Notes under the pieces: model-generated
What the model was told of the DNA's origin: nothing
The model's database searches: none
Seen by the model: only the letters and a program-made list of their open reading frames with translations
Made by a program: the position numbers and the translations under genes
Source of the DNA: Botryllus schlosseri
Lineage: Eukaryota
Direction of reading: 5' to 3'
DNA: 64,000 bases
Assembly: GCA_051294905.1 (NCBI GenBank)
Contig: CM119371.1
Span: 23,996,001-24,060,000, forward strand
Shown: one piece after another, positions 3,301-59,344 of the stretch
Position numbering within the stretch: the first letter of the stretch is position 1
Layout: each line of letters starts with the position of its first letter

Positions 3301-3463
3301 GAATTTTGTTGCGCACTGCATGTCGCGAGTCTCGACCGATCGAATATGAAGAGATTAATTTCGAAAGATCTAAACGAGAATGGAATGGAATTGACTAGAC
3401 AACTTTTTTACGGATTGATTCTCAATGATAAAGTCACCAATAAAATGAGGAAGTTCCTGACGG
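3301..3463 (+). CDS. NLR winged-helix/HD2-region exon (EFCCALHVASLDRSNMKRLISKDLNENGMELTRQLFYGLILNDKVTNKMRKFLT)
   Basis: tccag|GAA acceptor, G|gtaag donor (phase 1); NLR-like (Q)EFxxAL and ELTRQLFYGL motifs. Confidence 0.75.
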
Positions 3464-15400: not shown

Positions 15401-18400
15401 GCTTTCCGAATTGTTGATATCGGATGGGACCATGAAGTCAAATGTCTATTGTGAGGTCGCGAATATTGCCAGTATCACGGGTTGTTCGAGAGTATTTTTT
15501 GGAAACTGCGATCTGACGAGCCAGAAGTTGGAATGCTTTACGGCAACCTGCGTGCAAAATAAAAAATCGGCGAGTTGTGAAATTTGCCTGTTACAGCTGT
15601 TATTATATTGTTATTGTTATATTGTGATTTCCCAAATCAAAATGGAACTGTGACGTAGCAGGAATTTTGCGACTGCGTCGCGAACATTGTGATTGGCATT
15701 TGTGGTATTTCCCATGCACAATCACATCACTATTACCACCATTCGAATAAACAATATATGAAATGGACCATAGCCTCAACTTTATTTGTAAAGCAATCGT
15801 GTATTCTAAATATTCCTTATTTTATAGCTCTCTAGTCTGAAAATAGTGGATACTAAAATGCATGCTGAACTTTATCGTGAAATTGCTGTTACACTCAATG
15901 CTATCGGTGGCAACGAGATGTGGTTCCAAACCTGTGAATTGACGAGATCGAAACTTTCTGAATTCTACATCGGTTGTAAGGACAGCGATCTTACCGTAAG
16001 TTACTTTAGTCTAAAGAAAACGTAACGCGAGACAAGCTACATAAGTCGCGAGAAAACGACCGGGCGCACGCTACGAGAAAGATTAAAATACGTCCATGAG
16101 AATACCAAAAAGCTAGGACCCAAGAACAGTATGATATTCGTATCGTGGAGCACAAGGCCTAAAATACGATAAGCATCACTGTCTTGTGAACATTAATACT
16201 CCCGCGTTGCAGTGTAATAGTGCTGGTATAGTTAGTAATCCCTTTGCAGGCCAAGTCAATCCATTTTGACTGAGCATTGTGTCGCTCGCGCTCTACGGTA
16301 GGCTATTCTTTCCCTTGGCAACTATAATTTTTATGTTTGCTCATACATATTCCGATAAACTTCTGAACCAAATATTTTCTTTTGTATTTCGTTCGAAGAT
16401 TTTTATCATATCCGCCAAGTATTTCAGTCGACTCGAAATTAATGTCAGAAATTGCAGCGAGAAATTTAATGTTCTCCAGTAATCATTACTGAGAAGTTTC
16501 ATTATCATTCAGCTTTCCAAACTGTCGATATGGAACGGTGCGATGATGTCAGATGTCTACTGCGACGTCGCGGATATTATCAGTATAACACGATGTTCGA
16601 CAGTAGTTTTCGGAAACTGTGATTTGACGCAACAAAAGTTGGAATGTTTCACGGCAACATGCAAGAAAAAACAAATTTCTGTTAGTATGAATATTTGCTG
16701 AAAAATTGATTGGTACACAGATCAGGACATGAAAATGAAGCTCAGCAATATAATGATTTAGTGACGATAATATAAGTTTCTTTTGGGAAATTCATAGTTA
16801 ACCAATCGCATCGCCATGGATATTAATTATTCAATCATATTTTCCAGCAGTGGTGGCTCGTCCAATAGGGCAACTGGGGCATTGCCCCACCTAAAATTTT
16901 GTTCAATAATAAATATTTACCATTTATAGACGCACAGCATTCAAGATATACCGAAATCACAGCAAAACGTGCATACGTCTTGTGCTTTCGCTGGTAAATG
17001 CCCATCGCCCATACATAGCGAAGGCTTTGCGAAGAGCGAATTCTTTTCTGTGTTTTCGCTTTGTGAATGCCTAGTCGGGGCTTGCCCCGGTAGCACTCAT
17101 AACAAGCTTTCGCCGTCGGTTCTCTCAAAACCATGCAACAAGAAAGAAACGGTGACTTACTCTCTCCTATTCATAAAATTACTGAGAAAGTTGGGGCAAC
17201 CTTCCCTTGTTGCCCCCAAGGTGTGATGTAACAATCGTATCTATATCTGAACTCGGTTACCGTCATATGCGTTGAGTCGACCTTTGCTGGTATAGGTCGA
17301 TTTTGATGGTGTTTCGCACCATGATAATTCGTGAAACTTGGTATGTTATGTCGTGAAGGTGGTATTTAACACTGCTGCAAGTTTCAGGCTTGCTACCTAA
17401 AGATTAGAGTAGTAATTGTGTTTCCGAGTTTACTGTGTGCTGATCCATCATGTACAGCAAACAGATTTTACTCAAAAGGCAGCATTGGTCTCCATTGGTT
17501 TTGACTATAGAAATTAAACATGGAACGGCAACGACCGATTTTGCAGCTTCGTTCCGCTCCGCCGAGGCTGGAGTGGAGAGTGGTTTTGCGTAAGCGACTG
17601 TAGGATTTCTGGCAATCCAAATGCTATCTTCCCGAGCACAGAAATTATTGAATATGGTCTTGATCGAAAGCCACTGTTGCACCGATTCCGAAATTATAAA
17701 TTAAAATAATGATCAGGCACTGATCCACCTAGAATCCGTCCTCCAAGTCGAAATATCGGCATTGTTCGAACAATCGGAGAGTCGCAACGGGTCATTGTTA
17801 TGGTCATTGTGTTGCGGTTACCCGATTGTTCTGAACAATGCCGATATTTCAGACTTGGAGGACAGATTCTAGCTGGATCAGTGCCTGATCATTATTTTAA
17901 TTTATATTTTCGGAATCGGTGCAACAGTAGCTTTCGATCAAGACCAGATTCAATAATTTCTGGGCTCGGGAAGATAGTTTTTGAATTGCCAGAAATCCTA
18001 CAGTCGCTTACGCAAAACAATTCTCCTCTCCAGCCTCTGCGAAGCGGAACGAAGCTGCAAAATCGGTCGTTGCCGTTCCATGTTTAATTTCTATAGTTTT
18101 GACAATGTTCCATACCGAGATCGGTCTTGATATTTGATACGCTAAGTTAGTATCGACCGCTGTTACAAGTTTCAAGTTTTTCACTGAACTATGTGGGTGG
18201 TAATTTTGTTTCCTCAGTCGAGTGAGAGTCGACTCGTCATTTATCGCCAACAGATTTACGCCAATACCGCTGTTGGTCTCAATAGGCCTTTTGCAGGACT
18301 TCGATCACGTGACTAGGTCGCATAGCAACCACAAATTGGTTAGCAAGCTACTTTCTCGCGCACCTGCTTCAGTGCTAAATATCGCATATGGTACTGTTGA

Positions 18401-21400
18401 TTTCTGGTTGTAAACGTTTCGGAAATTTGTTGTAGAAGTCATCAGAGATTCACCTATGCTAGATGTCAATCATGTACAAAGCATTTAGAATGATATCGCC
18501 AGAATTACGCAGAAATCCATCGGTAACGTAGTCGTATTACGGTACTCAACTCTGATCATATGTACTTAAATTTATGCATTTGAAGTAAAGCGATTGGTTT
18601 ATATTCTGGTAAGAGTATTTGTTAGTTCAAGCAGAACTATTTGTCTGTTGTGGAGCCTGATTTTGGATGGAAGATATGACTGAAGCAGCCGGGACCCGCA
18701 AGGATCAGGATGTACTGTCTGCTGGTTTGGGTGCTGGCGTGCTGCTATAAAACCGCTGAACACATCGGAAGTATCTTTTGGGAGAACCTGCCATCAAGAC
18801 TAAGTAATGCAGTGCACTTTATTGTTGCCTTATACAATGCCGATCTTATTAGCACTACTTCACAACTGCGATTGAAGTGGATTTGGCAAATCACACGCGA
18901 TTTTGATAAATAGTTGATGTCACATATGTGCGCTATTTAGCGAACTAAGGGAAGTAACTATCAAATAACTCTTAGAGCAGCTCAAACGCAGTGACAAGAT
19001 CGGTCATCCTATACCCAGAGGTGGTCAACGTGGTCATTGTTGGGAACCGAGTACAAGTAATGCCTCAATTTATACTCCAGTACAAGTAGCAATAATTACT
19101 TCCAGGACATGTCCAAAGTACTTCAAGTGGAAGTAGAAATGAATTTCTGAAAAGTAGTCAAGAAATTCGTTACATGAAGTAGATTTGGTTGGGTCCCTTA
19201 GTTTTAGAAATTAATGCCACGTGACAACTGTAAACATTTCATGTTGCATCTTCTTGATCAACGCAAAAGGGTGATGACACCACAAATATGTGCAATTTTC
19301 AAAAATTAATTTAGTTACCGTGGTACTGGGGCTATTTTGCCCAGTTGTTATGACAACCTCACGCTTGAAGGGGATGCAATCATGCGTCAAAGCTACTTTC
19401 TAGTTGACAAAATCCACAAACTGACAAAAAAGTACTACCTAAAAAGTCTCAAGTAGAAGTGGAAGTAGCCTAAACTCATAATGACGCTAGTACTCAGGTA
19501 AAATAGTACTTCGTTGCTGACCCCCTCTGTGTATTGGTTCAACCAACTCAGAAACATCCTCTAAAGACGACGAACATTGTTTCTTTTGCATTGACTCCGT
19601 AATATTCTGAACTTATGTTATTCTTTGATTCATTGAATTTACAAATAAACTTGGAAAGAAGTGCAATTTATTAATTTTTGTGCATTCGATACCCAGAGCA
19701 TAAGAAATAGTTGAAGAAAAATGCATGTTAACCTTATCAAGTTCAATAACTGCCGAGACTCTTATGCCTATGTATTTTCATCTACCTCCAGAGCCACTTG
19801 TCTAGACAGATTCATAGCATCTGCGGAAGAGCGCTTGTCTTGTTGTACACAAATGAAATATCATTTTCGAAGCAGACATCAACATCGGGAAAGAAGTTCA
19901 GGACAGTTAGTCATTGGCCAGATCATCTGCTGACATTTTCTGTTGGCATGAAACCACGCTGCCTTCTACTGCATGACCGAATTTTATGTGGTGATAATAA
20001 TTGGCTCCAGGCTGAATTCTTGACGAGGGCATCATCAATTTCTTAGTTGCCTATGTTCGGCTCTCTTGGGATAATCCATCAGATCATTAATTCGTATACA
20101 TGTGGTATAGCCATGTCTTGAAACTCAAGATATTTGCACTGTGCCAAAGAGTCAAGTAATCCCATCCAGGCAATCAATCAAGTAATCCAGGCCTCGGGAC
20201 AGTTTGTTGCACCCTCAATTGGAGCTGATGATCATTTTTCTTCGGGTAGTGGCACTTGGCAGCATGACAGAATGATCAATAACTTGTAATATAGGTGTAC
20301 AGGTCTAAATATTTTGAATTGTTCAACTGAGAAGCCATACAATAGCATAGGATGTTTAATATATATATAGTATGTAGCACATGGCATGAATTCCTAACAC
20401 ATCAACGTACTGGCACTGGCAGTCATTGTCTCTAGGCTTAAAAATAGCAGTATCCTATATATATTGCAATCGATATCAATCATCAAAATGCTGCAATGAT
20501 TATCAACTACCACTACAATACAACTATAGTATAGTATACTTACTATCCACACCTAACTTAATGCTGCAATAAATATCACGCAGTCAATGTCCTGCAATGT
20601 CGAATTTTGTGTCATAAAATCATAGTTGACTACCATATAACGGCTACAATGTCGATCATTTTGACGCAAGGAGTTTACATAGTTCATGAATCGAAGACAT
20701 CAAACATATTTGAATCCTTGCGCATTTCCATGACACTTGCGTTTTATATAAAACGTTTACAGCCCTAAAACGATAATATACTGTATCCGAAATACGGCTA
20801 CGTTAACGACGGATTTCTGCGTAATTCTGACGATATCATTCTATATGCTTTGTACAGGATTGGCATCTAGCATAGGTGAATCTCTGATGGCTTCTACAAC
20901 AAATTTCCGAAATGTTTACAACCAGAAATCAACAGTACAATATGCGATATTTAGCACTGAAGCAGGTGCGCGAGAAAGTAGCTTGCTAACCAATTTGTGG
21001 TTGCTATGCGACCTAGTCACGTGATCGAAGTCCTGCAAAAGGCCTATTGATTCATACCTAGATCTGTCATGAGCTTTTGCGCGGTATGTCTTGATTTTAT
21101 TATGTCACGCCTTGCCAATTTTCAACGTTGACACTCAATGATTGAGGCAGTTATTTCGTTTTCGAGGTCGATTATGGCAGAGATGTGCGCTGATCTGATA
21201 CTTACCTACATCATTGCGGATTTCACGCAAAAGCCGGTGTCTATCTGTTCTAATTTAGTCTGCGTTCCATAACGTGATCGGTGATGATATATCACGATGA
21301 TCACCCAAAACAGCTTACTAAGATTCTCGGTTTGCATTCAAGTATTCACTAAAGTTTATGTTCTCCAATGTTCATTTCACTGTGAAATTGTGGCTTTCAA

Positions 21401-24400
21401 ACCATGTGCTTACAATCCCCTGTCAAATGTGATGGCTATTTCATTTGCGATGTCAGTTAACAGCTGATCACTCGATCAGCGTATTCCTCATTCTATTTTA
21501 TTCAAAGTTCGGTGTTCGTCTTTATTTTTTGATTTTGACAGTTTAACATGCTGGAATGGGTCATGAGATTGCGTATGCTACTTCTCGATGATGTCATGTA
21601 AAAGAGTAATAAGTTTACGGCTTTCACTGACTCATTCATTTAGTAATATATTTTCTAACGGAGATTTCGCAGCAGGCAGTAAGACAGTAAGCCATATATG
21701 CTGTGCCACAGTCTCCAGTTTCAAGGCCAAAATCTCCAACATGTTGTTCAGAGACCGACTTTCCAAGGATGCTATCCTTAGTTCTTTAAAGACCATTCAA
21801 AAGTTGCTTCGGATTCAATGTGACAGGCCCAATCTATGTGATAACAATTGCGTATGTGTCCGAACTCGTTGACCTTCCAGTTAGGCATACGCAATCTCCC
21901 GAGTGCTAGTCATTTATGCAGATAATTAGTCAGGTCAAATGCGAACATGAATCGTGTTGAATCTTTGCTCCGTACACCGTTTAAGCAGTCGCCATTAGAG
22001 CAAAAATTAGAGGTAAAGCGACTAGGTCCTTATACGCCTAGAAACTGTACATTGATCCAATCGTACGCCGGGTGCCACCGCTTTGGTTGCCTATCACCTG
22101 GTCGTAACACACCAGGAGCGTGTACGAAACACTTTCGGGTGGGCTTAGAAACACTAGGACCAATCGGTTTGCGTAATCACTACCACGAAATCAAAACGCA
22201 TGCTACTAAAGATGCGCTGATGATCGATTCGTGGCATAGGGACGATTCTTTGTACATTTTGTAAAATGACCGGTTGAATAAAAAAAAAGAATAAAACACT
22301 TTTATCCACACTTCAAGTCGCGGCTCATCGGCAAATCTCTCGCGGCACCTACGTTAAAATTACTGTTGTCGGAAATTCATGTGACCATCATAAAGTTACT
22401 TTTTCAAATTGGAAAACGTCATTCTGACTTAATGTTGATAAAATATCGCTTGTAGCCCTTGCCCCACCACCCGATATTCTCACGAGCCGCCACTGTTTCC
22501 TAACCGTTCGAAGACACAAGGGAATAAATCGACTTTGAGCTACATATATTGCAAAGCATTAGGTTAATGTATTTAATTCTATTTTGAAGCTCTCAACAGT
22601 TGAAGGAACGATGTGGAAATGTATGCCGAAGGTTACAATGAAATAGCTAATACACTAAAGTATATCGGTTGATAAAAGATGTGCTTCAACAATTGAGAAT
22701 TTACGGTGTAGTAGTCCAATATATCAGATTCCTAACTATAAACGAGTTTAGTATTTGTGGTGTTTTATGCATCCACCAGGTGTCTATCTTTGCGTCATTT
22801 CCTTTCGTGATTATTTCGTCTTGAAATCCTTGCAAGTGCTCAAGATTCGCTAAAGGTCTTCAATCACTGGGAAAAGACGCTCAACAATTTCATCAATGCA
22901 GTTGAGGCTTCGACGACGCAGGCTCCTTCTAACTCCGACGAAAACCCTCCCGCCTTGGTTCTCGATAAATTGGCGATCCTTACAGGGTATGTATCTCCTG
23001 ACGTCTATGCATTATTCGAACATCTGGACACCTTCACAGCGGCCATTGACGTGCTCATGTCCCTGTATCGAAAGAAGAAGAATGTAATTTATGCTAGGCA
23101 TCTGGCATCTGCTGGCCATTGCAAAACAAGACCCGGGTAAATCGATCACCGAGTTCTCACAGGAATTGCTCATGCTTGCACGTGATTGTTCGTTTGACGC
23201 TGTAACTGCTGACAAGCACAGACAAGAAGCGGTACGAGATTCGTTAATTACTGGTATTCAATCATCGGCCATTCGTCTGCGCTTACTCGAACATGACGAT
23301 TTGACTCTTGAAAAGGCGATAAAGATAGCTGAGTCTCTTCAACAGGCGCAAAAGTTTAGTTCCTATGAGCCGCAGAGTCAAACGTGTTCTGAATGTCAAC
23401 AGCGATCAATCCGCCAATGGTTCCAATTTATCAGCGTTCAAGAGCGATGTGCCTGCCGCGAATACATTGAAGAAGAAGTGAATTTTCTGCGGAGAAATTC
23501 ACGAAAGAACACGGAAATCCTGTCCCGCGAAAGATGCTTCAAGCTTTCATTGTGGCGTGCGAGGACACGATGCGAAGTATGCAGATTGCGTATCAGAGGA
23601 GAACCTGCTGCCTCGTTGAACTCGTTAGTCTCTGGCTCGGTACTTGCTGGAATATCCGAATCTCCTCTGTATTCTTGCCTCGACGTCTCCGTTGCGCAAT
23701 ACAACGTGGAAGCTTTGATAGATTCCGGTGCTTATGAATGCTATATCAGTGAATCTTTATCGAAATACCTCGGCCTTCGCCTGTTAGGTGGCAAATACCC
23801 CATCACACTCGCAGAGAAAAATTCCGTAATAACTGTTCTCGGGTGCATTGAAGCTTCACTCGAGATACCGGGGTGTAATTACGGCAAAGTCAAATTCAGA
23901 GTCGTTAAAGATCTTATTGCTGATGTTGTGCGAAGTATATTTGAAAGATGAAAACGGAAAATGCCATAACGGCAACGCAACAACAACAAAACGACCTCTC
24001 TCTCCACGGGTCACACGAGCTCTGTGTGCCAACATTCACGACCATCAAACAACACCGTTCGAACCAATCAACGAGCAATCAATCAGTCGCTCGCGCTGTG
24101 ATCAGCGTCCGAGATAACAGTCAGTTAACAAAATCGCACATTCCCCCGTGATGAATATCACTCTTCATCACCATTCATCATCGTCTCTCATCTCTTCTCC
24201 CCATCTCTCTATGCCTCTCATCTCTTCTCTCCATCTCTCTCCGCCTCTCATCTCTTCTCTCAATCTTATGAATTGGCAACGGCGCTCATCTCAGTACCAT
24301 CCAACCCATGATCGGTAACGAGGGCACGTGCTATCGATAGCACCTCAGTCAATTTTACCTGCTCCGCCTTTGGTGTCGCCCTTATCTGAGCAGACACACG

Positions 24401-27400
24401 TTTCGGCAACCCCAAGACGAAAGATAATTTCAACAGCCGTTCGTCACCGTTTTGACAGATACCCGCCAGCTTTGCTAATCGTTTCAAGTCGGCAAGGAAA
24501 ACGTCGACCGATTCCTCTTCATTCAACACCCTCGTCTTGAATTCCCCATACGCCGAAAGCTGATCACAGGCGAAGGCACGCAACAGAGCCTCTTCGATTC
24601 GATGTTCGTCACTCTTTTCAGTCTCCGGTAACTGGTCGTACACGGCAAATGCGTCACCGTCCAGAACCATTGGGGTTACGATTGTTGTTGTTGCTATATC
24701 ACCCGTTCCATCATACCGCGTCAACACCTCCGTCACCATGAAACTGGCCATTATCGTTGATGGGACGCGATAGCTTGTGTGAAGTATATTTGAAAGATGA
24801 AAACGGAAAATGCCATAACGGCAACGCAACAACAACAAAACGCCCTCTCTCCACGGGTCACACGAGCTCTGTGTGCCAATATTCACGACCATCAAACAAC
24901 ACCATTCGAACCAATCAACGATCAATCAATCAGTCGCACGCGCTGTGATCAGCGTCCGAGATAACAGTCAGTTAACAAAATCGCACACTGGGATTGGACT
25001 TCATGAAGCAGCATGAGAAAGTAGTATTTGAATTTGGGGACCATCGGAGGATCTCGTCATTTCTAATGCTTCACATTGCGCCGTAGCAGCTGCGAAAGTA
25101 TTTGCACCTCCTCAAATTTTCAAATTCGTCGACCCCGAAGTGCGACCCGTGGCTGTCAGATCAAGAAATTATAGTTCAGATGACCGCAAATTCATTGCGA
25201 GTGAGTTATCGAAGCTGCTGTGCGATGGTGTGGTAGAACACTCCGTGTCTCCCTGGCGAACTCAAGTCTTGGTAACTAAAGATTTTCGGCACAAGAAGAG
25301 GTTGGTAATCCATTATTCACAAACAATCAATAGGTTTACTCCTCTTGATGCGTACCCGTTGCCAAAAATAGAGAATATAGTCAATGAAGTGGCGAAAGGG
25401 ATGGTATACAGCACTATTGATCTAAAGTCCGCTTACCACCAGGTGCTACTATCTGTATCCGATAGGCCATATACTGCTTTTGAAGCTGATGGATCATTGT
25501 ATCAATTTTTCCGTTTGCCTTTCGGAATAACCAATGGTGTAGCTGCGTTTCAGAGTTTCATTGACAATTTCATTGCTGAACACGACCTAAAGGTACCGTT
25601 GCTTATCTTGATAACGTCACGATTTACGGAGAAAATCAAAAAGAGCATGATGAAAGGCTCCATCCAGGCTTTCGTGTTGGCTGCGACGAATTGCGAATTA
25701 ACACTCAATCGTGATAAATGTCTGTTCTCTATTTCAAAACTTTCGTTACTTGGACATTTGATATCACATAATCAAATTCAGCCAGATCCTGAACATCTGA
25801 AACCATTACTTGAAATGCCAGTTCCTAACGATAATCGCAGTTTGAAACGCTATGGGAATGTTGGCATACTATTCAAAGTGGATTCCCTCTTTCTCCAGTA
25901 AAATCAAACCAACATGTCAAAATTGCGAATTTCCGTTGATAGGTATTCAGCTTGAAGCCATCAGTAAACTGAAAGGTGACTTATTACGAGCCTGTCCAAG
26001 TTGTATTTATGACGATGAACCTTTCCAAGTGGAATGTGATGCGTCAGATCTTGCGATCGGAGCTATCTTAAGCCAGCGGAGCAGACCTGTCGCTTTCATG
26101 TCCCGAACATTGTCTAAAAGCGAGATGAAATATCCAGCTGTAGAGAAAGAGGCGCTGGCAATTATAGAATCTGTCAGAAAATTGGGATATCTTTTGATTA
26201 GAAACTAGTTTCGCTTAATCACCGACCAGAAAGCGCTTTCATTTATATTTCGAAAAAGTCACCCGAGCAAAATCAAGAACAGCATGTTATCTATTTGGAA
26301 ATTAGAACTCAGCTCGTTCAAGTATGAAATTTTTCATCGCCCCGGTGAGGAACATGTGGGGGCAGATGCTCTTTCTCGGCTGTGTTCCATTTCATCGTCG
26401 TCTGGAATGTCGTTACGGCAGATTCATGAAGCTTTGAGTCACCCTGGAGTCCGCAGGATTCATCACTTTGTTCGTGCGAAAAACCTGCCTTTTTCCATGG
26501 AGGATGTCAAAAACATCTGTTCCAATTGCTCTTTCTGCTCCGAATGTAAACCGCGTTTCTTCAAATCCAACCAAGTGAATCATCTAGTCCATGGGTGGGC
26601 AAACTACGGCCCGCGGGCCGCATGCGGCCCTCCACACCGTTTCGTGCGGCCCGCAAGAGTCTAAAGAAACTTATTAAAAATATTGATAAAATGCGGACTA
26701 AAAATCGAATTAATGGAGGGAATTGATTTAAACTTTTTCTTAGTACATTTCACCATGATAAGTATATGGAAGTGGTTCTCAAAACTGGGTGATGCACCAT
26801 CCTATAGGTGGCATGAAATCATTTGAAGGGAGGCGCGACGCTGAGCTCAACTAAAAATTTCGCGCTAGGCACGATTAACAGCCCATTCTTTATTATTGCT
26901 CTGTATTTAGTCTGAATTTGATATTTAAAAATCTCTCAACCACAGTCGTCACCTTCCATGCCATCAAACTATCTGAGGTTTGCTAACAGCCTGGTTGCGT
27001 TTCGTGATATGACGACAAGGGCGGCGAGAAATTTATTACCATCATAAGGGGGCAGGGCGTGTCTTAAAAAGTATGAGAACCACTATTCTAAGGTAAATAC
27101 TTCATACATCATTTTTATATTTAATTTCTTTCGTGACAACCCGATCTAAGGTCCACGCAGTCAGAAAGGTTTCAACTACTAAAGATCACAGAAATTCTAA
27201 ACGAGATCGACATAATTCGGATCACGAGTGGGATTTCAGATTGGCCACTCCAATTTTAATTATTTCCGTGATGTGCTTATAAAAAACGATTCGCGCGTGT
27301 CTTAGATAGACTCGTTCTCTGTATGCGCAAAATCAAGCTATTAATATTTTATCTACACATAGTAGAAGCGTGTTTGAACCTAACATGATTACGATGGTGT

Positions 27401-30400
27401 CAGCATTGTGTGTCCTGGAACTGAACCAAAAGTGGAATTAGTAAATCTATGAACAGATCGCTGCTCACAGATTTAAATTTCAATCTAATTCATCTCTATA
27501 GTTTTGAAAAATTGGTTATTTAGGTCGACCAGCCTATGAAATCCATCACCACTGTTTCTGATCTGATATCATCAAATCAATGGTTGGATTGTTTTAAATA
27601 AGCATATATATTATCTCCATGTCCTCACTATATAATCAAATACCAATATTGCGTTTTGGTTTATAATCTCAATTTTATATAGTGCGGCCCGCGAATGGAT
27701 TCAGATGTTGAATGCGGCCCGCCAGCTTAAAAGTTTGCCCACCCCTGATCTAGTCAAAGCCACGAGACCCTGGGAGCGTATAAGCATTGATTTCAAAGTT
27801 CCAGTCTCAGAGCCCAAACGTTTCATACTCGTCATAATCGACGAGTATAGTCGATTTCCATTCGCCTATGCGTGTCGTGACATGACTTCTGCGACTGTTA
27901 TCAAGTGCCTCTCTTCATTGTTTTCCCTTGTTGGACTCCCCGAATACGTCCACAGTGATCGAGGTACATCATTTCTATCGAAAGACGTAACGGTATTTCT
28001 GACTGGTAAAGGTGTTGCGTCAAGCAAATCAACACCCTATCATCCAACTGGCAATGCTCAATGCGAACGTTTGAATCAAACCCTCTGGAAAGCAATTAAA
28101 CTCCGTTTAGCAACTCAAAAATTACCTGAACGTATTTGGGAACAAGTCCTTCCTGATGCTTTGCATCCGATAAGATCGTTACTATGCACCTCTACTATAA
28201 CTGTTGTCCTCATGACAGATTTTTCAGCTTTGAACAGAGATCCATGTTAGGTGTATCGATACCTGATTGGCTCCTGGGCGGTGGCACTGTGCTGCTACGG
28301 AACTTCGTTCACAACAAGAGTGATCCTGAAGTCGTCAGAGTAGAACTTCTAGATGCTATAACACCAAATATGCTTTGATTCGTCACAGGAACGGGACGGA
28401 ATCAACGGTATCGGTCAAGGACCTGGCCCCTTGTCCACCTAAAGAGGACACGAATACGTCTGATTTCTCCTCTGACGAACCTGTGGTCGAGATGAGCCCT
28501 GGAGAATTCAATGATCAGAATCGTTCAGCTCGGGCGCCCTCAGATCAGCATTCTAGTTCTCCAGCCGCTGTTCGAAAGGACTGTTTCGATACGTCTATCG
28601 GTGGATATGACAACGATTCTCATATATCTGCTAAAGAGCCACCTGTCAAGAGGTCGTCAAGAATAAGACGTACGCCGGACTGGTACGGTGATCGCAGAAC
28701 TTGACTACTTTACGTAGGGTTAATTCTTTAGGCCGGGGAGATTGTGGTGTTTTATGCATCCACTAGGTGTCTATCTTTGCGTCATTTCCTTTCCTGATTA
28801 TTTCGTCTGTTTGTCCTTCAGTTAGTTGATCATTCTGGTTTAAGGCGTTTCGAGAGTAGCATGTATTTCCTGATTTACTTGCATTCAAACGTTTCTATTC
28901 TTTGTAGCTTATTCTACAATTTTAGTCGATAAATACCTTGAAAACCGTGTGTATATCAAGAGGGTTTTTTCTCGAAAGGTCACGACAGTATTCAATGATA
29001 GGCAAGCTTGTTCTTAATGTGCAGAAAGCAATCATCTCGCTTCCACATTACGAGGTTGAAATTGCATTATCGGGATCTGATGGAAACGTAATTTGAAAAA
29101 AAAACAGTAATGGCTCAAATACTTCGAGATGAGAGCAGAATAAATCGACAAAATGCCAAGATATGATGCCGCCACGTATAGGCTAATGGACATTGTCAAA
29201 ACTTGAATCGACACTGGAACTATGTCGACGCGAGTATTTCTTCTCTCACAAAGCATCAACTATTCTCAAATGTATTAGTTACATTTATCTGATCTAGATA
29301 TCAGCTTCTATTGTGCGACAACCTCTCTATAGTTCTGCTTCACATGATTAATTTATTTTCCGTGTCAATTCAACTTGAGGATGCTCTACTAATATCATCG
29401 TGAGCTATTCCCGACATAATATAACTCGATGAACGCAATGTCAATCTCAGTGGCGAGGCGACACTATGTAAAGCACTGGGACTGTACAACCGGATGAACT
29501 GGCCAATTAGTTCAAACTACTTGGTTTCTGATAAGAACGACCATATTCGACTATATTATACGACAAACTCTCGGATTGGCACATTGCGCTCGTTAGTATT
29601 AATTGGTGTTTACCCGCCGTGTGTCGCAAAGAGAATCACAGATTACGAGTAAACTGCAACTCGAGCTGGAATGGAAGAAATGTCAACATGGAATCCCATC
29701 AATTGGACAATCTATTTATTCCAACGCCAGTTAAAACCTAATTACTTAGTACGGTAATCCGTATTGAACTCAGAAGTATGTGCAACATTGATAACACATT
29801 TGTCTGAGCTTCCCGTCAATACTTTCTTTAATTTCATTGTCCTTGCGACGCAACGTGTTCCGGGACCTATATAATTCTTCGTACAAGGTGTTGTTATTAC
29901 TATATCATGTGATAAGACATATCGATCGGTTCTAATTATTAACCAGAAGTGCACTAAACTTTGAAAGACACCATTACCAGCATGTTTACCGATATAGCTG
30001 CTTGTGAATCGAAGATAAGAAGCATGCTAGAACGTGAACTAGAATGGGTATTCGATTTTGCATCGCTAGCCAAAACAGGAAGTGCTTTAGAAATTTGTTT
30101 TTTAATAATGTTGGGCAACATCGGTGATGATTCCATGCTGAATGCAGTCTTAGGTTTTCAGTGTAGTCGACCATTCAGTAAGGCGTCATAACAATATGAA
30201 TGAAGCAGAAAGTTCAAATGTAACGTTTATGCCAGTTGCAAATCACTTTTAACGATAACACATGGTCAAAACAATTTTTGCTGGTTATTTTTACCTAATT
30301 TGGGGCGCTGAATCCGAATCTGGCGTTACTTTTGAGATATTATGTATATAACCTTTTCTTATCTTTTCGGTTTACTGAAGTAGATTTTGCCTACTTGCAT

Positions 30401-33400
30401 TATTTACTGAAGTGGTTATGTTTTCATACTACCTCCACTTCTACTTGTACAGTATTTTTGATGAACTACATACAACTGTAATTTGGATTTTGAAACGTAA
30501 AACTAGTGATGGAATAATATTGCACCACTATCACGAGTTTAGTGGTCATTGCAGTAGCGTGGTGAAGTAGCCCGGAATCAAGGTAACTGGCTGGGGTATA
30601 TTTACCAATATCCAACCTATTCGTAACGTTATAATGGCCACTTTCATTATCCCCGGAAGTTGCATCTTGAGATTTCGTATATATCCACCTCAGAGCAACT
30701 GCGAAAACTATGCGATCCCGACCAAATAATCGTTTGACACATTCTGACTTAGTACTTTTCAAACCTTTCATCAATGTGTTCTCTCTGAAGTAGCTTTGTC
30801 ATATCTTAGAAATTACCACTTGTACTTGAAATTGGGAAAATATGTAAGGGGTTATTTGTTGTTCTACTTAAGTACCAACGCTGATCTGTTCGACCACTTC
30901 TGATATATAGTAATATATTACAACAATTCCTAAACCGCACTGAAAATCCATCAGTTTAGTAATTTAACCATGCAAAACACAACTGACCGATTACAGTATC
31001 GATCAGATTTCGTAACTGTCGATATGGGATAGTACGACGTCGGATATCTATAGACATCTCCCTAGTACAGAGGTCTCAAACATGCGGCCCCCGACGGTAT
31101 TTTGGAATTTCCAGTATTCAACAATAAATTCAAGGGCCATATATCTTTTTTAGATATAAGAACTTGAAGTTCACGCTTAAAATACTATAAAAATCACTGA
31201 AATCTCAACAAACTTCTTCATCACAGCACTTTTAAAAGCTACCATGTGGTAGAAGATAAGCTATTACGTCACATTTCTACTTCAAGATGATAAAACATCA
31301 CCAGTTCATGATTCGTGACAGAAAATTATGTTTGGTGCGACCTTTTCGTAAAATTACTCGATTTCGGATTGACTGGGTGTTTAATAAAAACGAACCCAGT
31401 TGAGTCGGGTCAAATGATGAAATCAGAGAAGGACTTGCGACTTAGAACGGTAATCCTACGGACGCAACAATCTATGAAACTGGCATGGGGAGTAATATTT
31501 TATCAAAAGTTAGTAGCTTGCGTTGCGTAGGGTATATAGCTATCTAATCAGGTCAGTATGACAACCATTGGTATTATGTGACCTCCATGACGTATAGTTA
31601 GTTACATGCTGAGTGTTGCCTGTTTTCTTTATCCATGTTATCATCGGTGGCGAGTAAGGTAAGGCTCTACAGCTGTACCACCAATGAATTCTTCGCCAAT
31701 TGGACATTTCTATTCCAGGGGTTCTTAACCAGGGTTCGTAGACCCCATCGGGGCAGAAGCACCACATCAGGGTGTACGAGTTGCATTGTGGAATTAGGCC
31801 TATATGCTGTGTAATGTTTTCTTGACCAATTTATTCAACTGGAAAATAGTCTTCACGCTACGCATGATTTGATGTGAATGGGCTTTCCAATTTTAATATA
31901 GGTATCATCAGAATTTGTGCTGAAAATGAACACATAATTTCAATGACAAAGTAAATGACGACAGGACCTGTGGGGTATATGAAGAATAAATCAGCAAAAT
32001 CGTGGACATTATGCTTATTCCTTTCTCGGCATTTTTGACACTGGAAGGAAGAGATAATCAGAATTGGAATCATTTTGCGCTGTCTACGTCAGTATCTCTG
32101 CAAAGAAACACATCTACTATTTTGAAACTTGACTCGCATATCAGTTTTCTTTGTCGGGCAGCCTCCTTAAATTCTCGTTGGTGACGTACCGTTTGAACCG
32201 TGTGGCGTTTCATACATTTTCCATTCATTTTGAATCCGAGGAAGTTTTGCGAATAACATCATAAGATACTCTCTGTGCGTATACTGGCAGTTTTGGTACG
32301 CTCGTGGAATAGACTTTGATCTCCGATATTGCTACAGCTTTCGGCGATTTTGCTGCAAGCAAATTCGCCTTGTAACCTCATTGCCAATTATTATATATAT
32401 TTAAATACATATGTTTATGGCCTGGTCGTTGTTGTTTGTTGTATTCATGGTTTTCGACTACTATGGTCATTTACACCAGACCGTTATTCCTTAATTTTGA
32501 TTCCCACTTTTGGGCTTTTTATAAGACACCGCTTACGCGTGAGAGAACAGGATGAAGGGATGCATGCGTTTGTCATTTATCAGAATGTTCTAAAAATAGT
32601 AGCGTTAGGGGAAAAATTTTCAAAATTGTTCTCAAAGTCAAATTTTTTTGCCGTCTGCATTTCGTTTGTTTCGTAGATTTTGCACTATCGGTGAACTTAT
32701 CATTTGATATTTTACAGCTTGTAGCCTACTTCATAAGCCTGCCGTTGTAAACGGTCAATTGTCTTCTCATTGGGAATCATAAACGGTCAAATAAAACAAA
32801 TAGATAGACATGGTGTTATGGTCAACGTACCGCAATATCCTAACTGAAGAAAGACTTCCTAGGCATTGCGTCATTCTTATATTAAGAAGCGCATGATGAA
32901 AAATTGTCATGTAGACAACATTATGAGAATGAAGCAACACGGAGTGTCACCAGTAAGTGTACGAACAACTTGAGCGATGTCAGCTGCTGCTGTTGAACGT
33001 TCTTTCTCCATTCTTGACAAGATTCTTAGTAAGGACATGCACTTTCTACCCAGGAATGTAGAAAAGTATCTCTCGTTGTGCTAGAACAAATTTTAATTCG
33101 GTGTTTTCACGCAAGACTCGGCCCTTATCAGACTAGAAATTGTCCATTGATCTAATCGTACGCGGGAGAAAAGTGCAATATTACCTTTCCCCAACGTATT
33201 TCGATAAAAATGAATGGCTGACGTATAAGCGAGGATAAGGATGCCTTGTTATCCACTTTTACACTGCTGGTGCCAGGGGCAGTGTTCCTAGTTCGACCGA
33301 AATTCGGTGTCGTGATCTGAAGCATGTGGTCTACTGCAAACGGCGTCTCGATATTTCCTGATGTTCGACATTGCTCGGCTCGAGTTGACTTGTTTATATT

Positions 33401-36400
33401 CCAATACATCTTTTACCACTATAGTGAGCTTTTAAAATTCCTAAGTTGAAAAATCGATTTATGTCAACTTTGCAGCACTACTTAGGCTCCGGGCGTTAAA
33501 TGTGCTCACGTTTCTCAACGCTCTAATTCTGGGTATTCCAGATTTCAATGGAGTCATGCTTGAACATTTTGAAACTATGGAATTACGCCGGGCGCAATAG
33601 GCCTACCGATACGAACTTTAAAATAAGCACTTATAAATTACTGTAGGCTACTTAATATTTTCTTTCGAATGATTTGAAATGCGTAAGCTTTGTCAAACAT
33701 GTCTGATGTCTATACCCCATACAAACGGGTGTGACCACCACGAAGTCACATTTTAACATCGGAATACACTATTGTGACGTCATTTGGACAATTAAAGTCG
33801 CGTAGACTACTTGCCCCACCACCCTATATTGTCACGAGCCGCCACTGATAGTAAGACAATGGTCACTGGATTGACTATTACCGTAATTTTCCATGTATAA
33901 TGCGCAAAATTTTACCGATTTTTTGCCCTAAAATAGGGGGTGCGTATTATACATGGGTACAGCAAGCCTTGAAAAAAAAATCCCACAATCAAAAACTTGA
34001 AATCACACCTTTATTCATGTTTGTTTAAATCGCGCATCACCTCTAGCCATTGGGCATCGTAATACGTGTTATAGAGTGTAACGCGCTGCCAAATAGAGAA
34101 GCGTGTTGCCAATTAACGAAAAGCGTGTTTCTAATTAACGAGTGTCGTCTGCAAAGCACGCGATCTGTTGCTGAGTTGGTTTGCCGTTTGTACGCGAGCG
34201 AAATTAGGTCGCTGATTGCTACAAGCGTGCGCGGCAATCCTTGTTGACTCATCGCGTCAACGACAGGCCTTAACAATCGCATACACAAGAGGCCATGTGC
34301 ACGAGATATAATCGCTTGCGTAATCAGTCGCATCTCCAATGGGACTGGTGCGCCGACATAACCGTTGACCTGAGCAATCGCATCTGTAATTGTAATAGGC
34401 CACGTGCGTAAGATGACGTGTGTCGCTTGCCTGAGCTATCGCGTCGCCGACCTCACAGGCTTTGGCTACTATCTACTCTCGTTTAGAGACAATGCCGTGA
34501 ATTGTATTATGATTAGCGATCATCATGTCATGATTGTTCGACAGTGACATCTCAAAACAGAACAACATTTAATACTAAACCGCAACAATTCATGTACTCA
34601 TGTACTGAGAATGCAGGGTGCGTATTATACATGGGTACAGGCTTTTTCCCAGAATATACACGTCATTTTAAGGGTGCGTACTATACATGGGGGCGCACTA
34701 TATTCGGAAAATTACGGTATTCAATATGACCCAATCATTTACGGAAGTTCCGAGTGCATTTTTGTGATAAAATTACTCGGCCTAATATATAATTCTTAAA
34801 CGTAAGCCGTAAATGCAATCACATTGCTACGTATATTGGTAATTCATGTTTTGCGACCTTTCTGAAATGGGGAAGCATAGAAACAGTCATCTACTCAACA
34901 GAAGTATTGTAAAGTAATCCGTAATGGTAAATAATGCTTATTTTGTAGCTCACAACTCTGTGTATATTCGATGCAAAAATGCCTGCTGAAACTTTTCGTG
35001 AAATCGCAATGACACTCAAGACCACATGTTGCAAAAAGATACAGTTCCAAAACTGCGAATTGACAACAAGGAAGCTCTCTGAATTCTTCATTGGATGTAA
35101 AGACCACCATCTATCTGTAAGTTGAAAGAATGTTCCTGAAAGGCGAATTCTTTAGAGTGGGTGTTAACATCAGGGCGATCGTGATCAGTCGGTAGATTGC
35201 AAGATCCAATCGAGAGCATCACAATACAAACCAAATGGCTTATTGGGTGTAAGGGCAATATTGACATGAATTTGTCATTACTCGTGGGATTGACAGACCA
35301 CGGAGATTTGTGCATCTGTGAAGTAAAAAGCGACTTACTACTGACTTGTGATCGCCCCTGGTCTGAATCGTAATAAAATAATCAAAGCTACTTCAATATA
35401 TCACAGTGGTAGTTGAAAATTGGCTTGGATTCGCTCTGAATATGCATCAATCAATGATCCAGTTTGGACAATTCATGATATATATTACTTCCTATATAAA
35501 GTCGGATATAATCGTAAATTGATTGAAAGTTGAGTTTTGGGGCATGAGAACACAAATCAACAAATTACCGGATATGACGATTTCTAGAGTTCGCTATTTC
35601 GTCGACATATTTGGTGCTAAAATAGGCACATATTCGACACTGCAAACATGATCAAAATTTGCGTAAGCCTATCATGCGAGTTGGTTATCTTCATCTAGCC
35701 TACTCTATATAGCAGGGGTGGGCAATTATTTACGCAGCTGACTAAATCAAAAGCAGGAAATACGTTGGCGGGCCGAGTCAAGAATTTAAATGATAATCTG
35801 CGGCGTATTAGAATTACATTGTTCACACATGCTGCTCAGGATATGTATTGGTATTAGGCCATGAGAAAGTGATGGGTAATCAGCATCATGATTCAGAACA
35901 ACGGTAACATCATAGTTTTAAACTATATTTTATTCCACAGACACGTTTTTCTGGTGAGACATTCAAATTACTTTAGGATATCACAATTCCTGTCTGGGAC
36001 GCCGCCTCCGAAGTAGTGTGTAGCTTGGTGAAATAGCCTTGTTGTTGATGGAAACTAGCAGTGTTTCCCAAAATCGCCCTCCCCTAGCCGAGTGTCTATC
36101 TTCATGTTTTTCGTCAACAAACAGACTTAACATATACTCCACTGGGGCCTGCTCGCTACTGACTAAGATGATGGGTTCACCCCTGACTCCAGTATACCAA
36201 TATTCAGTACTCCAAATCTTTTTTGGCAGTCGGCCCGCACCATCGATTGCTGACATGCCCGGACGTTCATCGCTTATGGGTGATGATGACTGGTTAAGCA
36301 CGGACACTGGACAGTGATCGACTTGTGTTACGAATTAGGGATTTGGAAATGTATTGCGTAACAATTTGAGCGAGATGCGTGCTTTAGATCGCTGCCATAT

Positions 36401-39400
36401 AGGGCTAAGAAGGATTACATCTTAATTTTGTGTGGTGCATGTGTATCTGTGCACGAGAAAAAAGAGACAGGTCCGAATTAATTAAAGTCCCCAGTGAATA
36501 TATTTGTTAAGAAAAAAACAGGAAAATTGCTAATTCGGTAGCTAGTGTTAGCTTTGATCATTTTCTACTATTTTCACGTGCTGAAAATATCAGAAGTAAA
36601 CTATGTGAAAAAGTATGTAGTGTACGGCAAACGGTTTCCAGAATGGGATTTGATTATTATCGAATAAAACGGCGTTCGTTACCTTGGTTTTGAAGAACGC
36701 AATGTTCAGATAGTATCTGCAGTCAATATTTACGGACCATGATTGTATTCGTATTGCTAAATCTACAGTCCCATATAAACCGGAACTCATATTTGATTAT
36801 TTCACAACGTTCAATCGTTAATATTCTAACTGTAGACATTCTATTAGCGATCATTATATTCTATTCGCCATATCGTCAATAGTATTTCTTTTATTGAAAG
36901 TTTATGCAAGCATGTGGTATTACATATATGTGTGCAATATGTCGACAATGAAAATAAAAAATATATAAATTTATTGAGTAGATTGATATCGATAACGGTT
37001 ACAGTAACAACTATATTTGAAAGAATGCTAACTAACTTTTATTACTTTGACGCTTTGTTATCTAGAATGGCTGATTGATTATATACCTGACTGTCAATTG
37101 AATTGGGTACCTAAAATGTATTTGAAAAACGAACGGTTGGTTCGAATTCACATCCATATGTTGAGCATGATCAATTAATCATATGTGACTGTGTGGTGCC
37201 TTTAGATGGTTGTGCAAATTGTCAATATAATTTAGAAATTATTGACTTATTCTTTATTCTGGTCTGCATTTATACGAATTCATTGATGCTTAGTTAGCAT
37301 ACAATTCACCATATCATTGGATATGTCGAAAGTATATTATATCAATGCGAGTTAGAATAATATAATATAACCAAATCAAAATCACTTTTGAGTATGATAC
37401 ACAATAGTTGTTTCATACAGCTCTCGAGACTGAACATCATGGATAGTACAATGCTTCCAGACGCTTATTACGACGTGGCAAATATCGTCAAAATCACCAA
37501 ATGTACTATTCTGTATTTCCGATATTGCGATTTGTCAATACAGAAATTGGAAAGCTTGGGTAAGGGTTGCAAGGAAAGTCGCATCTTGGTAAGTTGATAA
37601 TATTAAGAAACCTAATTTAGACAAAATTTTGCGTTCAAGTTTAAGAAACAAGAATTTAAATCGAAGCAGCGAAGAATGTAGAGTATATTGTCTCAAAGTG
37701 ACATGTCCATGTGTGACATGTCCAGTTTTCAAATTTTGAAGGTCCATTTTTAAAACTTTTTAAAGAAACGGGTAGAGAGCCACTTTTCAAATTTCATTGA
37801 TGCCTTTAGCCGTAAGAATGCAATATCGTGACCAAATAGACCACACTTTTACTAACCATTACTTGTTTACGTCAGTACAACTATAGAGTATGACTGGAGT
37901 GACGACTCGATTGTTCTCCCATTGTTAGCCGGCAGAATGGTCACGGTCAGATGGCTGCACCCAAAACATGATCGCTCAGCGCTTGTTTCTATGGCGTCCA
38001 AGGCGATTCGTCATGTATTTCTTGAAGCTGCGTCGGATTTAGTTGGACAGTTCAACATTTAGGTAGCGGTGGCGAGTGGTTATGACTAGTGAATATTACC
38101 GTGTAGCCTATGTTACATTTCTCACGAGATTGATGTGATATTGTGGCTTTGATCCTTTATAGAGTTTGCTACGTATATAAATATAATGACAGAAGGTATA
38201 TAGAATATCTGGTTCGTGTACATTGGCTATTGTGAGATGAATTCATGGAAAGGACGACTGAAGAGTACTACAAAGTGAACAAGTGGAAAGATCTCGAACT
38301 ATATCGATATGCAGTTCGCAATAGCTTTGATTGAAAATATATCCTATATTAACTGCAGAAATTCGAGTATGAATATAACAAATAATATCGCAACAGTCTT
38401 GTAGTCTTGTGTGCCTGTCCGATAACCGAAGAAACTTGAGTATGACTAGAACCAGAGCCTTGTGTAATGTCAATGTTCTGCTTGATCTCGGTTCACAATA
38501 GTCAGAGCTTACTCCTTGGAAGTATGCAAAATCGCACTTGAATGGAACTCGTTGTCATTGCCAAAAATACCCTGGAATTCGCTTGGAAGACCTCTGCCAG
38601 TGACATTAGTAGACAGCCAATGCACCACGTCAAGGTTTCGACAAACGCATTTTTTTCCCTTTTTTAGGTAGGGAATCTCAATGTGGATAGGCAGCATTTG
38701 CCACAGAGAGAAAAAACTACCATACTAACACTACCAGAAACTACATTCGCTTCATTTGCTGCATCTTTTCTTGGTCATGGATTCCTAGCCGACTTTTGTC
38801 CAAGGATTTTGATCAACATAGGCTTATGTTGTATTGGCACCTTTCCCTCTCTTTATAGCCTTACGCTGGCATAAACGCTGGCCTAAGGCATTTACTGAGT
38901 AACTGACTTGGCCAATAACTGGATTCCTGCTGTATCTCATCGAAGACCGCTGTTAACTTTTAACATTCGTGAATAATATTAATGAATGTCAACTGAAGTT
39001 ACCCAAGATCCAAATGCTGCTTCCAGAACATCTTGTGTTAGGACTCTGGAAGATACTGATTCCATAACACCATTCAAAAGCCGAATTGCTAGCTTGCCCA
39101 TATTCTTGGTCCATATTTGTATAGAATAGGGTTGCCATACGTCCGGAATTTCCCGGACATGTCCGGAATTTCACTGTTCAAACTGGCGTCCGGGAGGAAT
39201 TTCTAAAATATGCCAAATGTCCGGAATTTTGAAGACTTGACGTAGGCTCATAATTTTTTCGTAAATCAGCATAAAAACAATATTTTTTGGGAATAGGCTA
39301 TTTATGCTGATGCATGATATTTTTTTTTCACGCTGCGCGCGATTTACTATCACATTTATTGATTTTAATATGGAGACTACTACCATCGCAAAATGTGCAA

Positions 39401-58165: not shown

Positions 58166-59344
58166 TAATGTTCCCTCTAATTTTTGACGAGTCTGCGACC
58201 CTTGCGCGGTGCCTTGAACAACAGTGCGTAACCACTAAAAAAAGGTCATCTCTTCGGATTTGTTGTGCGCAGCTTAGATTTTCTGTGTGCAGTGACCGTC
58301 TCAGTAGTCAGCACTGCGCAATTGCACACGTGTGCAGCTTTGAGGGAACATTGCACAGGAGCCATGACGTGACGTGGACTGTTGTTTAATCACTGTCGCT
58401 ACTTTATGTTAGTGAGTGACTTTTTTACATTTACTAGGTTTTGTGTACGTTTCTCTTATCATTTTATTTTCCCACCAAAATGACAGAAGAAATTGATCAT
58501 TACAACCACATAATTGCCTGACTTGACTATGACTTCCATTCTATCGCGTTTCCCTATTATTGATTCATTGCCGTAGCAAATCAGCAGTATAGCAATCAAG
58601 AAATCGACCAATCAATCAATCAATCATTGTCAATACCATGTAATTCTGAAACACGTTGGTTATTAATCTTTAGTGTAACCTGCATGGCTATTGTCAGTGC
58701 ATTCTGCATTTGACTGTTGACTGAATAACCAAAAAACACCTCTATCTTTTCTTCCTCTCTCTCTTTCATTTACGCTTCACTTCTCGCGGTAACGGCGGGA
58801 ACTCAGTCAGTTTGAAAGGTCACCGCATAAGTAAATGGAGCAATAAGTCGCAGTACAGTGACTTTGCGGATGTGGATGAACGTGTCGCGAATCTCATCAT
58901 AGCGGAAGGAATGGTGAAGTTCCTAATTGCAAATGGGATTAAGAGAGAAGACATTGATTTAATTCAAGGTAATTCGTTTAAGGATATCAGCATGTCATAT
59001 GTTATGATTATGTTGTCAAGAGGGTTTTTACAGCAAGCAGCAGTATGAGAAACATGCATAGATTACCTTTTAGATCAAATTGCAGTAGCATCAAAACTGA
59101 GTTTCAGAATGTCAGTTAAACCTTCAAATTGACGCAATGTGGGGTTATACCTAGTGATACAACTACGGATCTAGTGCAGGATTCACCGTCATAGGGTGAA
59201 CATGATACTTAATCCATATATAAGCAAGTGAGTTATTCACCGTATAGCCTTGGAATTCGGATACAAGTGAATCATGTATTCAAATAAGACGCAAGGTGGT
59301 CATAACAAGAAAAAAAGAAATCAAAGTGAGAATATGACATTTCT

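Follow-up and report, generated by a model that had tools for sequence, protein, structure and literature searches.

The host gene and its two-repeat exons

The window analyzed here, a 64,000-nucleotide stretch of Botryllus schlosseri DNA, contains 12 exons distributed across 52 kb that are open, in phase, and equipped with splice sites. These exons appear to belong to an ascidian NACHT-LRR (NLR-type) gene, with the NACHT domain predicted from relatives and the fold of the leucine-rich repeats (LRRs) from a relative:

3301..3463, + strand: host exon past the NACHT core (EFCCALHV..., helical-domain region), open, with splice sites; tblastn with relative P0015, E 2e-10
4091..4410, + strand: host gene exon, in phase; tblastn with P0015, 36% over 102 aa
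4521..4670, + strand: host gene exon, in phase; tblastn with P0015
5220..5393, + strand: host gene exon, 174 nt, phase 0, open and in phase; P0015 likeness by eye
13428..13595, + strand: live 168-nt two-LRR exon C, with a divergent first unit
15402..15569, + strand: live exon A1, 168 nt, phase 0, GC donor
15828..15995, + strand: live exon B1
16513..16680, + strand: live exon A2, donor side of a predicted 18.3-kb intron
34949..35116, + strand: live exon B2, acceptor side of the same predicted intron
37421..37588, + strand: live exon A3
46021..46191, + strand: C-terminal capping-type exon, 171 nt, weak donor; tblastn with P0006, E 3e-5
55604..55666, + strand: probable last coding exon including the stop, in phase; likeness to the P0006 end by eye only

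The first of these exons matches the region that follows NACHT in relatives; tblastn with 72 proteins found no match to the NACHT core itself in the window, and the gene extends beyond the window's 5' edge. Downstream, the array is built of equal-length, frame-symmetric exons of 168 nt and phase 0 with two LRRs each. All live array exons (6/6) have this length and phase, and since every exon is in phase 0, skipping any one of them preserves the reading frame. Eight copies of the cassette are recognizable, of which six are live. Identity between units is 0.55 at lag 2 versus 0.31 at lag 1, and A and B exons share about 31% identity, compared with about 50% between the types in Styela proteins. 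Four columns tell all three A exons apart from the two B exons, and two of these columns (V/I 19, I/T 22) fall in the region of the first helix; the hydrophobic core columns are common to both types.

Pfam identified no LRR family on any of seven single exons. The best PDB match of the array profile is ribonuclease inhibitor, with an E of 0.0012 that falls short of the 0.001 default and with hits spaced about 57 residues apart. The exon profile aligns to the Styela clava relative P0003 with an hhalign probability of 97% (E 4e-11). The predicted model of P0003 (pLDDT 93) is a regular strand-helix solenoid in which every 56 residues hold two strands and two helices, and its top Foldseek matches are ribonuclease inhibitor and NLRP-containing structures, with E down to 2e-9. 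Judged through this relative, the array would form a C-terminal LRR solenoid of the ribonuclease-inhibitor class.

Passages of Hoss et al. 2019 (PMC6642158) describe frame-preserving exons of two LRRs each in human NLRP3, the NLRP genes, and ribonuclease inhibitor. As there, removal of a whole exon here shortens the solenoid in frame. The NLRP3 exon, however, is 171 nt long (28+29 residues) rather than 168 nt, the Botryllus gene adds an exon-level A/B period of 112 residues, and its lost units are genomic pseudo-exons instead of alternatively spliced exons.

A dead B and a dead A exon within one intron

A preliminary description of this DNA proposed that one B exon and the next A exon lie inactivated between A2 and B2. 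Significant alignments and nhmmer matches to both bear this out, and at the sequence level the predicted splice from 16680 to 34949 preserves frame and A-B order. The intron contains the following features:

16848..22495, no strand assigned: DNA-transposon-like element with short inverted ends, nested insertions, and an imperfect target duplication
22496..22589, + strand: end of the intron preceding dead B, a homolog of the 3' portion of the A1-B1 intron with 63/91 positions identical (z 7.4)
22590..~22710, + strand: dead B pseudo-exon, with a 1-nt deletion, three in-register stops, and an unrecognizable 3' part and donor
22756..28987, + strand: decayed Ty3/Gypsy element, with a 66-nt 5' LTR remnant, a 3' LTR at 28743-28987, and a 5-nt target duplication
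31007..31067, + strand: dead A pseudo-exon, with its acceptor kept (CAG), one stop, and a 3-nt deletion, cut after about 61 nt
31068..31257, + strand: left end of a hAT-like non-autonomous element, directly abutting dead A

Dead B aligns to B1 with z = 13.6 and to B2 with z = 12.4 (500 Markov resamples for each dead-exon alignment), never exceeds 2.6 against the five other exons, and matches the nhmmer B profile at 22574-22705 (E 3e-12). Its 1-nt deletion lies near the start, and its three stops fall within 40 codons. A candidate remnant of its donor at 22700-22760 was rejected (z -1.0 and -0.6), and its missing 3' half was not found in the sequence past the Gypsy element (28993-30900, z 0.1). 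The exon alone does not separate its parents (76/120 identical to one live B exon and 73/120 to the other), and the upstream intron is nearer to that of B1 (z 7.4 versus 2.9). Without the 16848-22495 element, the intron from A2 to dead B measures 261 nt, compared with 258 nt for A1-B1. The conserved intron end and this intron length before dead B support duplication of a two-exon block; the remaining introns are not clearly homologous to one another (z no higher than 3.3), and the block boundaries are hence not fixed.

Dead A aligns best to A2 (z = 10.3), then to A1 (z = 7.0), and only with z 1.5 to A3, and it matches the nhmmer A profile at 30983-31051 (E 6.5e-7). A search for its missing 3' half past the hAT-like end found nothing (31068-34948, z -0.3). 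A six-frame HMM search, nhmmer, a generic AG-exon-GT scan, and sliding alignment with seven exons found no further copy, intact or dead, in 16681-34948; only the two dead copies were significant. The generic scan also returned a 171-nt open stretch at 22922, which lies within the Gypsy gag region and is not matched by LRR profiles.

The two exons were said to have died together, a claim to which their lesions lend no support: each carries separate lesions, and these provide no relative dating of the deaths. Private changes make up a similar share of both (24/120 in dead B, 11/61 in dead A), and their codon-position bias is too sparse for dating exon deaths. By a relative-rate count, the excess of private change in dead B is not significant (24 versus 12, p 0.065; 24 versus 15, p 0.20).

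Transposons closely flank both dead exons. The 16848-22495 element, which stops 94 nt upstream of dead B, itself contains a palindromic element (17504-18098) and an element with 264-nt inverted ends (18279-21050); RNA reads from other copies of the host element skip both. The Gypsy element starts about 50 nt past the end of the dead B profile match (22756 versus 22705), as first described. Its 3' LTR has TG...CA ends, and an identical 5 nt stands on both of its flanks. Although its frames are broken, PF13975 (23088-23948), PF00078 (25032-25898), PF17919 (25846-26205), and PF00665 (27636-28247) follow one another as protease, RT, RNase H, and integrase, the order that defines the Ty3/Gypsy group; two insertions, at 23926-24987 and 26583-27753, are nested within it. 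Its 5' LTR remnant is identical to the 3' LTR at 64/66 positions, an age estimate that rests on 66 nt, and at the upper 95% bound of that age P = 0.001 for the three stops found within 40 codons. Because the LTRs are this similar and the exon carries three stops and a frameshift, Gypsy most likely arrived after the B exon had died.

The remnant beside dead A, which we take to be hAT-like from its end motifs, shares 71% identity across 181 nt with the left part of an element at 672-1471, presumably also hAT-like on the same basis, which has both ends and flanks matching at 7/8 nt. No right end was found for the remnant in 31050-34948, and it is hence a one-ended copy without terminal inverted repeats at both ends. 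A hAT-like left end does abut position 31067, then, as the earlier claim of a hAT MITE cutting the exon had it, while the MITE label is not supported. Followed by a deletion, this insertion may have inactivated the A copy, or it may have struck one already dead. The broader proposal that transposon insertion caused or followed the contraction survives in its second half for Gypsy; the hAT-like element may have been either cause or sequel.

Transcripts were sought in 4 of 24 same-species runs (bulk raw reads from two studies, 6–13% of each run), mapped on 15340-35200. Among the 15 of 16 read joints listed from this sample, none was an exon-exon joint, and 16680-34949 did not appear. Between 86% and 99% of the mapped RNA reads diverge beyond a match, coming from other transposon copies, and the bin containing A1 and B1 reached a depth of 0.21 in a single run, with 0 in the other three. 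Protein searches at E 0.001 returned no allele or ortholog with the pair intact; other profile matches were mostly single-unit fragments, and the ten checked lie on contigs of 0.6–5.2 kb.

Alternation of exon types and its breaks in relatives

Five predicted NACHT-LRR proteins of Styela clava, each annotated as an uncharacterized protein, contain the same tandem unit of about 56 residues and two LRRs, with profile E values from 6e-234 to 2e-37: XP_039248824.1 (P0001, 2508 aa), XP_077976009.1 (P0002), XP_039259544.1 (P0003), XP_077976001.1 (P0004), and XP_039260272.1 (P0005). NACHT and winged-helix domains are present in P0001 and P0004, and period-two tracts in P0001 and P0002. The Styela arrays differ from the window gene in reaching up to 32 units, compared with six live units, and in alternating between types other than the A and B of the window. 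A single clade (100/98) unites the units of P0001-P0005 and P0010 and excludes A and B, and the alternation thus arose separately in the two lineages.

Same-type neighbors occur in 5/5 Styela models examined, at 1/18 junctions in P0001 (units 18/19), 1/17 in P0002 (units 15/16, 93% identical), 3/5 in P0004 (up to 96%, with units 8/9/10 among them), 4/7 in P0003, and 1/3 in P0005. These counts were read from RefSeq gene models, where an overlooked exon would create a spurious same-type junction, and P0002 and P0004, which lie on contigs of equal size and share repeat types, are not independent. In the closer relative P0006, two neighboring units are sisters (99/98). Because A and B in the window differ more from each other than the Styela types do, the Styela counter-examples may not carry over to the Botryllus gene.

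The preliminary description took A/B register to be structurally required, and this claim is not supported: relatives have same-type neighbors, and chance alone can give such a pair. Two random deaths among seven exons preserve alternation in 7/21 cases (4/10 if only internal exons are considered), a null probability of about one in three for the adjacent pair, and one event has no power. The structural alternation of the fold, two unlike repeats per unit, is already contained within each exon (cf. passages of PMC6642158). The dead exons, adjacent and of opposite type, look like ordinary remnants of exon duplication and loss and are no proof of required alternation.

Alternation is the expected product of two-exon block duplication. 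Passages of Bjorklund et al. 2006 (PMC1553488) report that repeat proteins expand by multi-domain blocks, most commonly of two units, and the higher identity at distance two seen here resembles block-duplicated repeats including the nebulin super-repeat. For nebulin the same passages suggest a structural constraint; here, in contrast, relatives break the period, there is no known partner to impose it, and a constrained, nebulin-like period that is never broken is at odds with the same-type junctions in every Styela model. The two long Styela arrays, with 17/18 (P0001) and 16/17 (P0002) alternating junctions, leave open a soft preference for alternation.

Origin of the dead pair

The reading we favor, with a probability of roughly 0.7, is that exon cassettes of a modular LRR array were born and lost in the ordinary way. 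A single exon would have been duplicated, its copies becoming A and B by divergence; blocks of two exons, intron included, would later have been copied, giving A-B-A-B without selection on order. One B and one A copy then lost function and decayed neutrally, each gathering its own stops and indels and losing its 3' end. Without donors the dead exons would pass for intron sequence, and A2 would be expected to splice to B2. Transposons gathered in the freed DNA, with Gypsy, judging by divergence, probably arriving after B had died.

The principal rival is a soft register constraint, in which A and B are co-adapted in packing and, after one death, loss of the neighbor was favored or freed, restoring A-B order. 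We consider this unlikely. It would account for the adjacency and opposite type of the dead exons, for alternation that arose independently and was kept over long Styela tracts, and for the four columns that split the types, and passages of PMC1553488 allow that selection may favor some duplication sizes. It is weakened by the single powerless event, by the same-type neighbors in all five Styela models and in P0006, by the shared hydrophobic core, and by human NLRP3, in which skipping of a single two-LRR exon is reported in passages of PMC6642158, whose authors argue that the fold likely stays intact. A bolder form, which we regard as rather doubtful, is that ascidian NLRs, separately here and in Styela, evolved a two-exon super-repeat (four LRRs, 112 residues) of co-adapted A and B that grows and shrinks in pairs, so that this locus catches a compensatory second loss restoring register. 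Should pairwise loss prove to exceed chance across the family, the modularity of LRR exons at the splicing level would be limited by higher-order packing, and the large gene family would offer a natural test of whether mutation (block size) or selection sets a repeat period. Among the papers listed by literature searches, none dealt with alternation at the level of exons, or with exons lost in pairs, in ascidian NLRs. Under ordinary birth and death, the locus offers a single dated case of cassette turnover in the repeat array of an immune receptor, where transposons fill dead ground.

It is improbable that a single transposon event silenced both exons, with the 5.6-kb element, Gypsy, or the hAT-like insertion disturbing exon definition before both decayed. 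The close insertions, the similar share of private change, and the age of the hAT-like remnant fit such an event, but Gypsy looks too young, B2, A3, and the last exons are intact beside equally large transposon-filled introns, and the comparable private change could reflect when the copies arose rather than when they died. Most improbable is that this copy of the gene is silent as a whole or has recently become a pseudogene, its junction never made and its exon order under no current selection: the RNA result and a gene start outside the window would fit, but RNA sampling was confined to a small part of four runs, 12 exons stayed open and in phase while two neighbors decayed, and differences between live pairs concentrate at third codon positions (21/48, 19/41, 33/71).

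Array exons and two pseudo-exons

The window is animal DNA of about 40% G+C with transposon remnants throughout, and it carries one plus-strand gene (3301-55666) whose twelve exons are open, in phase and provided with splice sites. The live two-LRR exons of this NLR-type gene form the following array.

Live array exons (start in window, strand)
13428, plus: exon C, 168 nt, phase 0
15402, plus: exon A1, 168 nt, phase 0, GC donor
15828, plus: exon B1, 168 nt, phase 0
16513, plus: exon A2, 168 nt, phase 0
34949, plus: exon B2, 168 nt, phase 0
37421, plus: exon A3, 168 nt, phase 0

A1 and A2 are identical at 37/56 residues and B1 and B2 at 31/56, while A3 shares 24-25 residues with the other A exons. 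Because within-class identity (24-37 residues) exceeds that of A-B pairs (16-19), the two classes are real. The A1 donor reads GCGAGT (15570-15575) in an otherwise intact exon; this weak donor could allow A1 to be skipped.

A profile of the six exons matched 69 proteins, the best five being Styela clava RefSeq models, two of which contain NACHT and winged-helix domains; the NACHT core had no match within the window. Judged by these nearest named relatives, the DNA comes from an ascidian. The predicted structure of the Styela model P0003 is a regular solenoid in which 56 residues make two strand-helix turns, with ribonuclease inhibitor and NLRP-containing structures as its best structural matches.

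Two pseudo-exons occupy the 18.3-kb predicted intron between A2 and B2. For dead B (22590 to about 22710) the matching live exons are B1 (z 13.6) and B2 (z 12.4), no other exon scoring more than z 2.6; for dead A (31007-31067) they are A2 (z 10.3) and A1 (z 7.0). Separate DNA profiles recover dead B and dead A at E 3e-12 and 6.5e-7, respectively. The preliminary description, which held that one B-type and one A-type exon had been inactivated, typed both correctly, and both alignments are significant. Nor do extra intact exons intervene: DNA profiles run over the whole window up to E 1 found no further copy; beyond the live exons and these two they gave a single match, on the minus strand (E 0.93). 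The observation of two pseudo-exons within a known gene design is correct. Dead B has three in-register stops and a 1-nt deletion, and dead A a 3-nt deletion and one stop; in both, the donor and 3' part are unrecognisable, and a search beyond the insertions did not find the lost halves.

In four of 24 RNA runs, aligned to 15340-35200, none of the 15/16 joints displayed was an exon-exon joint, the bin containing A1 and B1 was near-empty, and most aligned reads came from other transposon copies.

Transposons and the timing of loss

A Gypsy element (22756-28987) adjoins dead B, as first described; it has a 5-nt target duplication and the Gypsy domain order, with its frames broken into several. 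The surviving 66 nt of its 5' LTR match the 3' LTR at 64 sites, which places divergence at no more than 5.3% per copy (upper 95% bound). In simulations of neutral change at 5.3%, at least three stops arose in dead B's 40 codons with P = 0.001 (P = 0.05 at 30%), which suggests that dead B was most likely dead well before the insertion. Hence, of the proposal that a transposon caused or followed the loss, Gypsy most likely followed it, although the surviving LTR piece is short and homogenisation between LTRs can occur.

The hAT MITE said to cut dead A proves, at 31068, to be a left end belonging to a hAT-like family (another member lies at 672-1471); it does abut dead A, and its right end is missing. 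With 71% identity to its relative and a position directly beside dead A, this remnant may mark the insertion that caused that exon's loss. Private change is similar in the two dead exons (24/120 in dead B, 11/61 in dead A), which would fit a shared birth and a shared death equally well; a relative-rate count fell short of significance.

Proposed block duplication and the A/B register

Between A2 and dead B lies an element of 5.6 kb (16848-22495) whose inverted ends are short; the remaining host sequence, taken from both sides, comes to 261 nt. The A1-B1 intron measures 258 nt, and its end matches the final 94 nt before dead B (63/91 identical, z 7.4), the first 167 nt of the host sequence matching only weakly (z 1.9). 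The host intron length and matching end therefore indicate that dead B was copied along with its intron. Such copying is what tandem duplication of an exon block would be expected to produce, and a duplicated block of two unlike exons would alternate by construction. In the account of Bjorklund et al. (PMC1553488), repeats expand mostly several domains at once, two being the commonest unit, and low similarity between neighbours is attributed mainly to such expansion, with selection allowed for.

The preliminary description held instead that the A/B register is structurally required, an inference that outruns one event. Frame is uninformative, because all array exons are phase 0, and two losses among seven alternating exons preserve alternation in 7/21 cases (4/10 with internal exons only), so that a single case is no evidence for a required register. 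Relatives also place same-type units side by side. Repeat units were cut from nine proteins selected for carrying several family units (8 of the 69 profile matches plus one isoform), and five Styela models were tallied. Same-type junctions numbered 1/18 within the alternating tract of P0001 (XP_039248824.1), 1/17 in P0002 (XP_077976009.1; neighbours 93% identical), 4/7 in P0003 (XP_039259544.1), 3/5 in P0004 (XP_077976001.1; 96% and 77% identity) and 1/3 in P0005 (XP_039260272.1). Over whole arrays at a 70% identity cut, the counts were 1/31, 1/21, 1/7, 3/9 and 1/3, respectively. In P0006, a closer relative, two adjacent units are sisters in the tree. According to PMC6642158, moreover, each NLRP exon encodes two repeats, of 28 and 29 residues, and skipping of one such exon is reported for human NLRP3; the alternation that is known to be important for the NLRP-type fold, as presented there, sits inside each exon.

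A soft preference for A-B order is possible. Alternation holds at 33/35 junctions in the two long Styela tracts, a regularity that block duplication explains and selection could reinforce; window A and B types are 31% identical, compared with 50-53% for the Styela types, leaving more room for co-adaptation; and the Styela counter-examples are gene models, P0002 and P0004 being non-independent.

In a tree of 88 units and 57 columns, from which the relative P0072 and units under 45 residues were left out, units of P0001-P0005 and of another relative, P0010, form one clade (100/98). Because this clade excludes the window exons, the window's A/B pair arose separately. P0001 and P0002 each have their own two-type alternation over 18-19 units, with 53- and 56-residue units alternating in P0001; within the family, a period of two appears to have originated more than once.

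Other elements and a downstream frame

A 595-nt palindromic element occurs twice (17504-18098 and 41991-42585, 90-94% alike). RNA reads derived from further copies of the element around it skip 17498-18097, and the element at 18279-21050 is likewise absent from them. Inside Gypsy, 215-nt direct repeats (96% alike) surround a 219-codon minus-strand frame without a Pfam match (23926-24987), an insertion resembling a second, small LTR element. A hAT-like non-autonomous element (26583-27753) breaks the Gypsy integrase region, and its second copy (53130-54110, 81-83% alike) lies in the last intron.

In the intron preceding exon C, minus-strand fragmented frames at 7188-10072, including one of 398 codons without a Pfam match, resemble, on visual inspection, a non-LTR retrotransposon with a zinc-finger-like N-terminal part and the start of an RT-like region. 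A 261-nt inverted pair (37880-38140 and 41780-41988, 92%) encloses 3.6 kb with minus-strand frames (40722-41693), probably a decayed DNA transposon. Finally, 3' of the NLR gene's stop, a plus-strand frame (58800-58970, in the region 58725-59048) ends at a possible donor and could represent an exon of a following gene.
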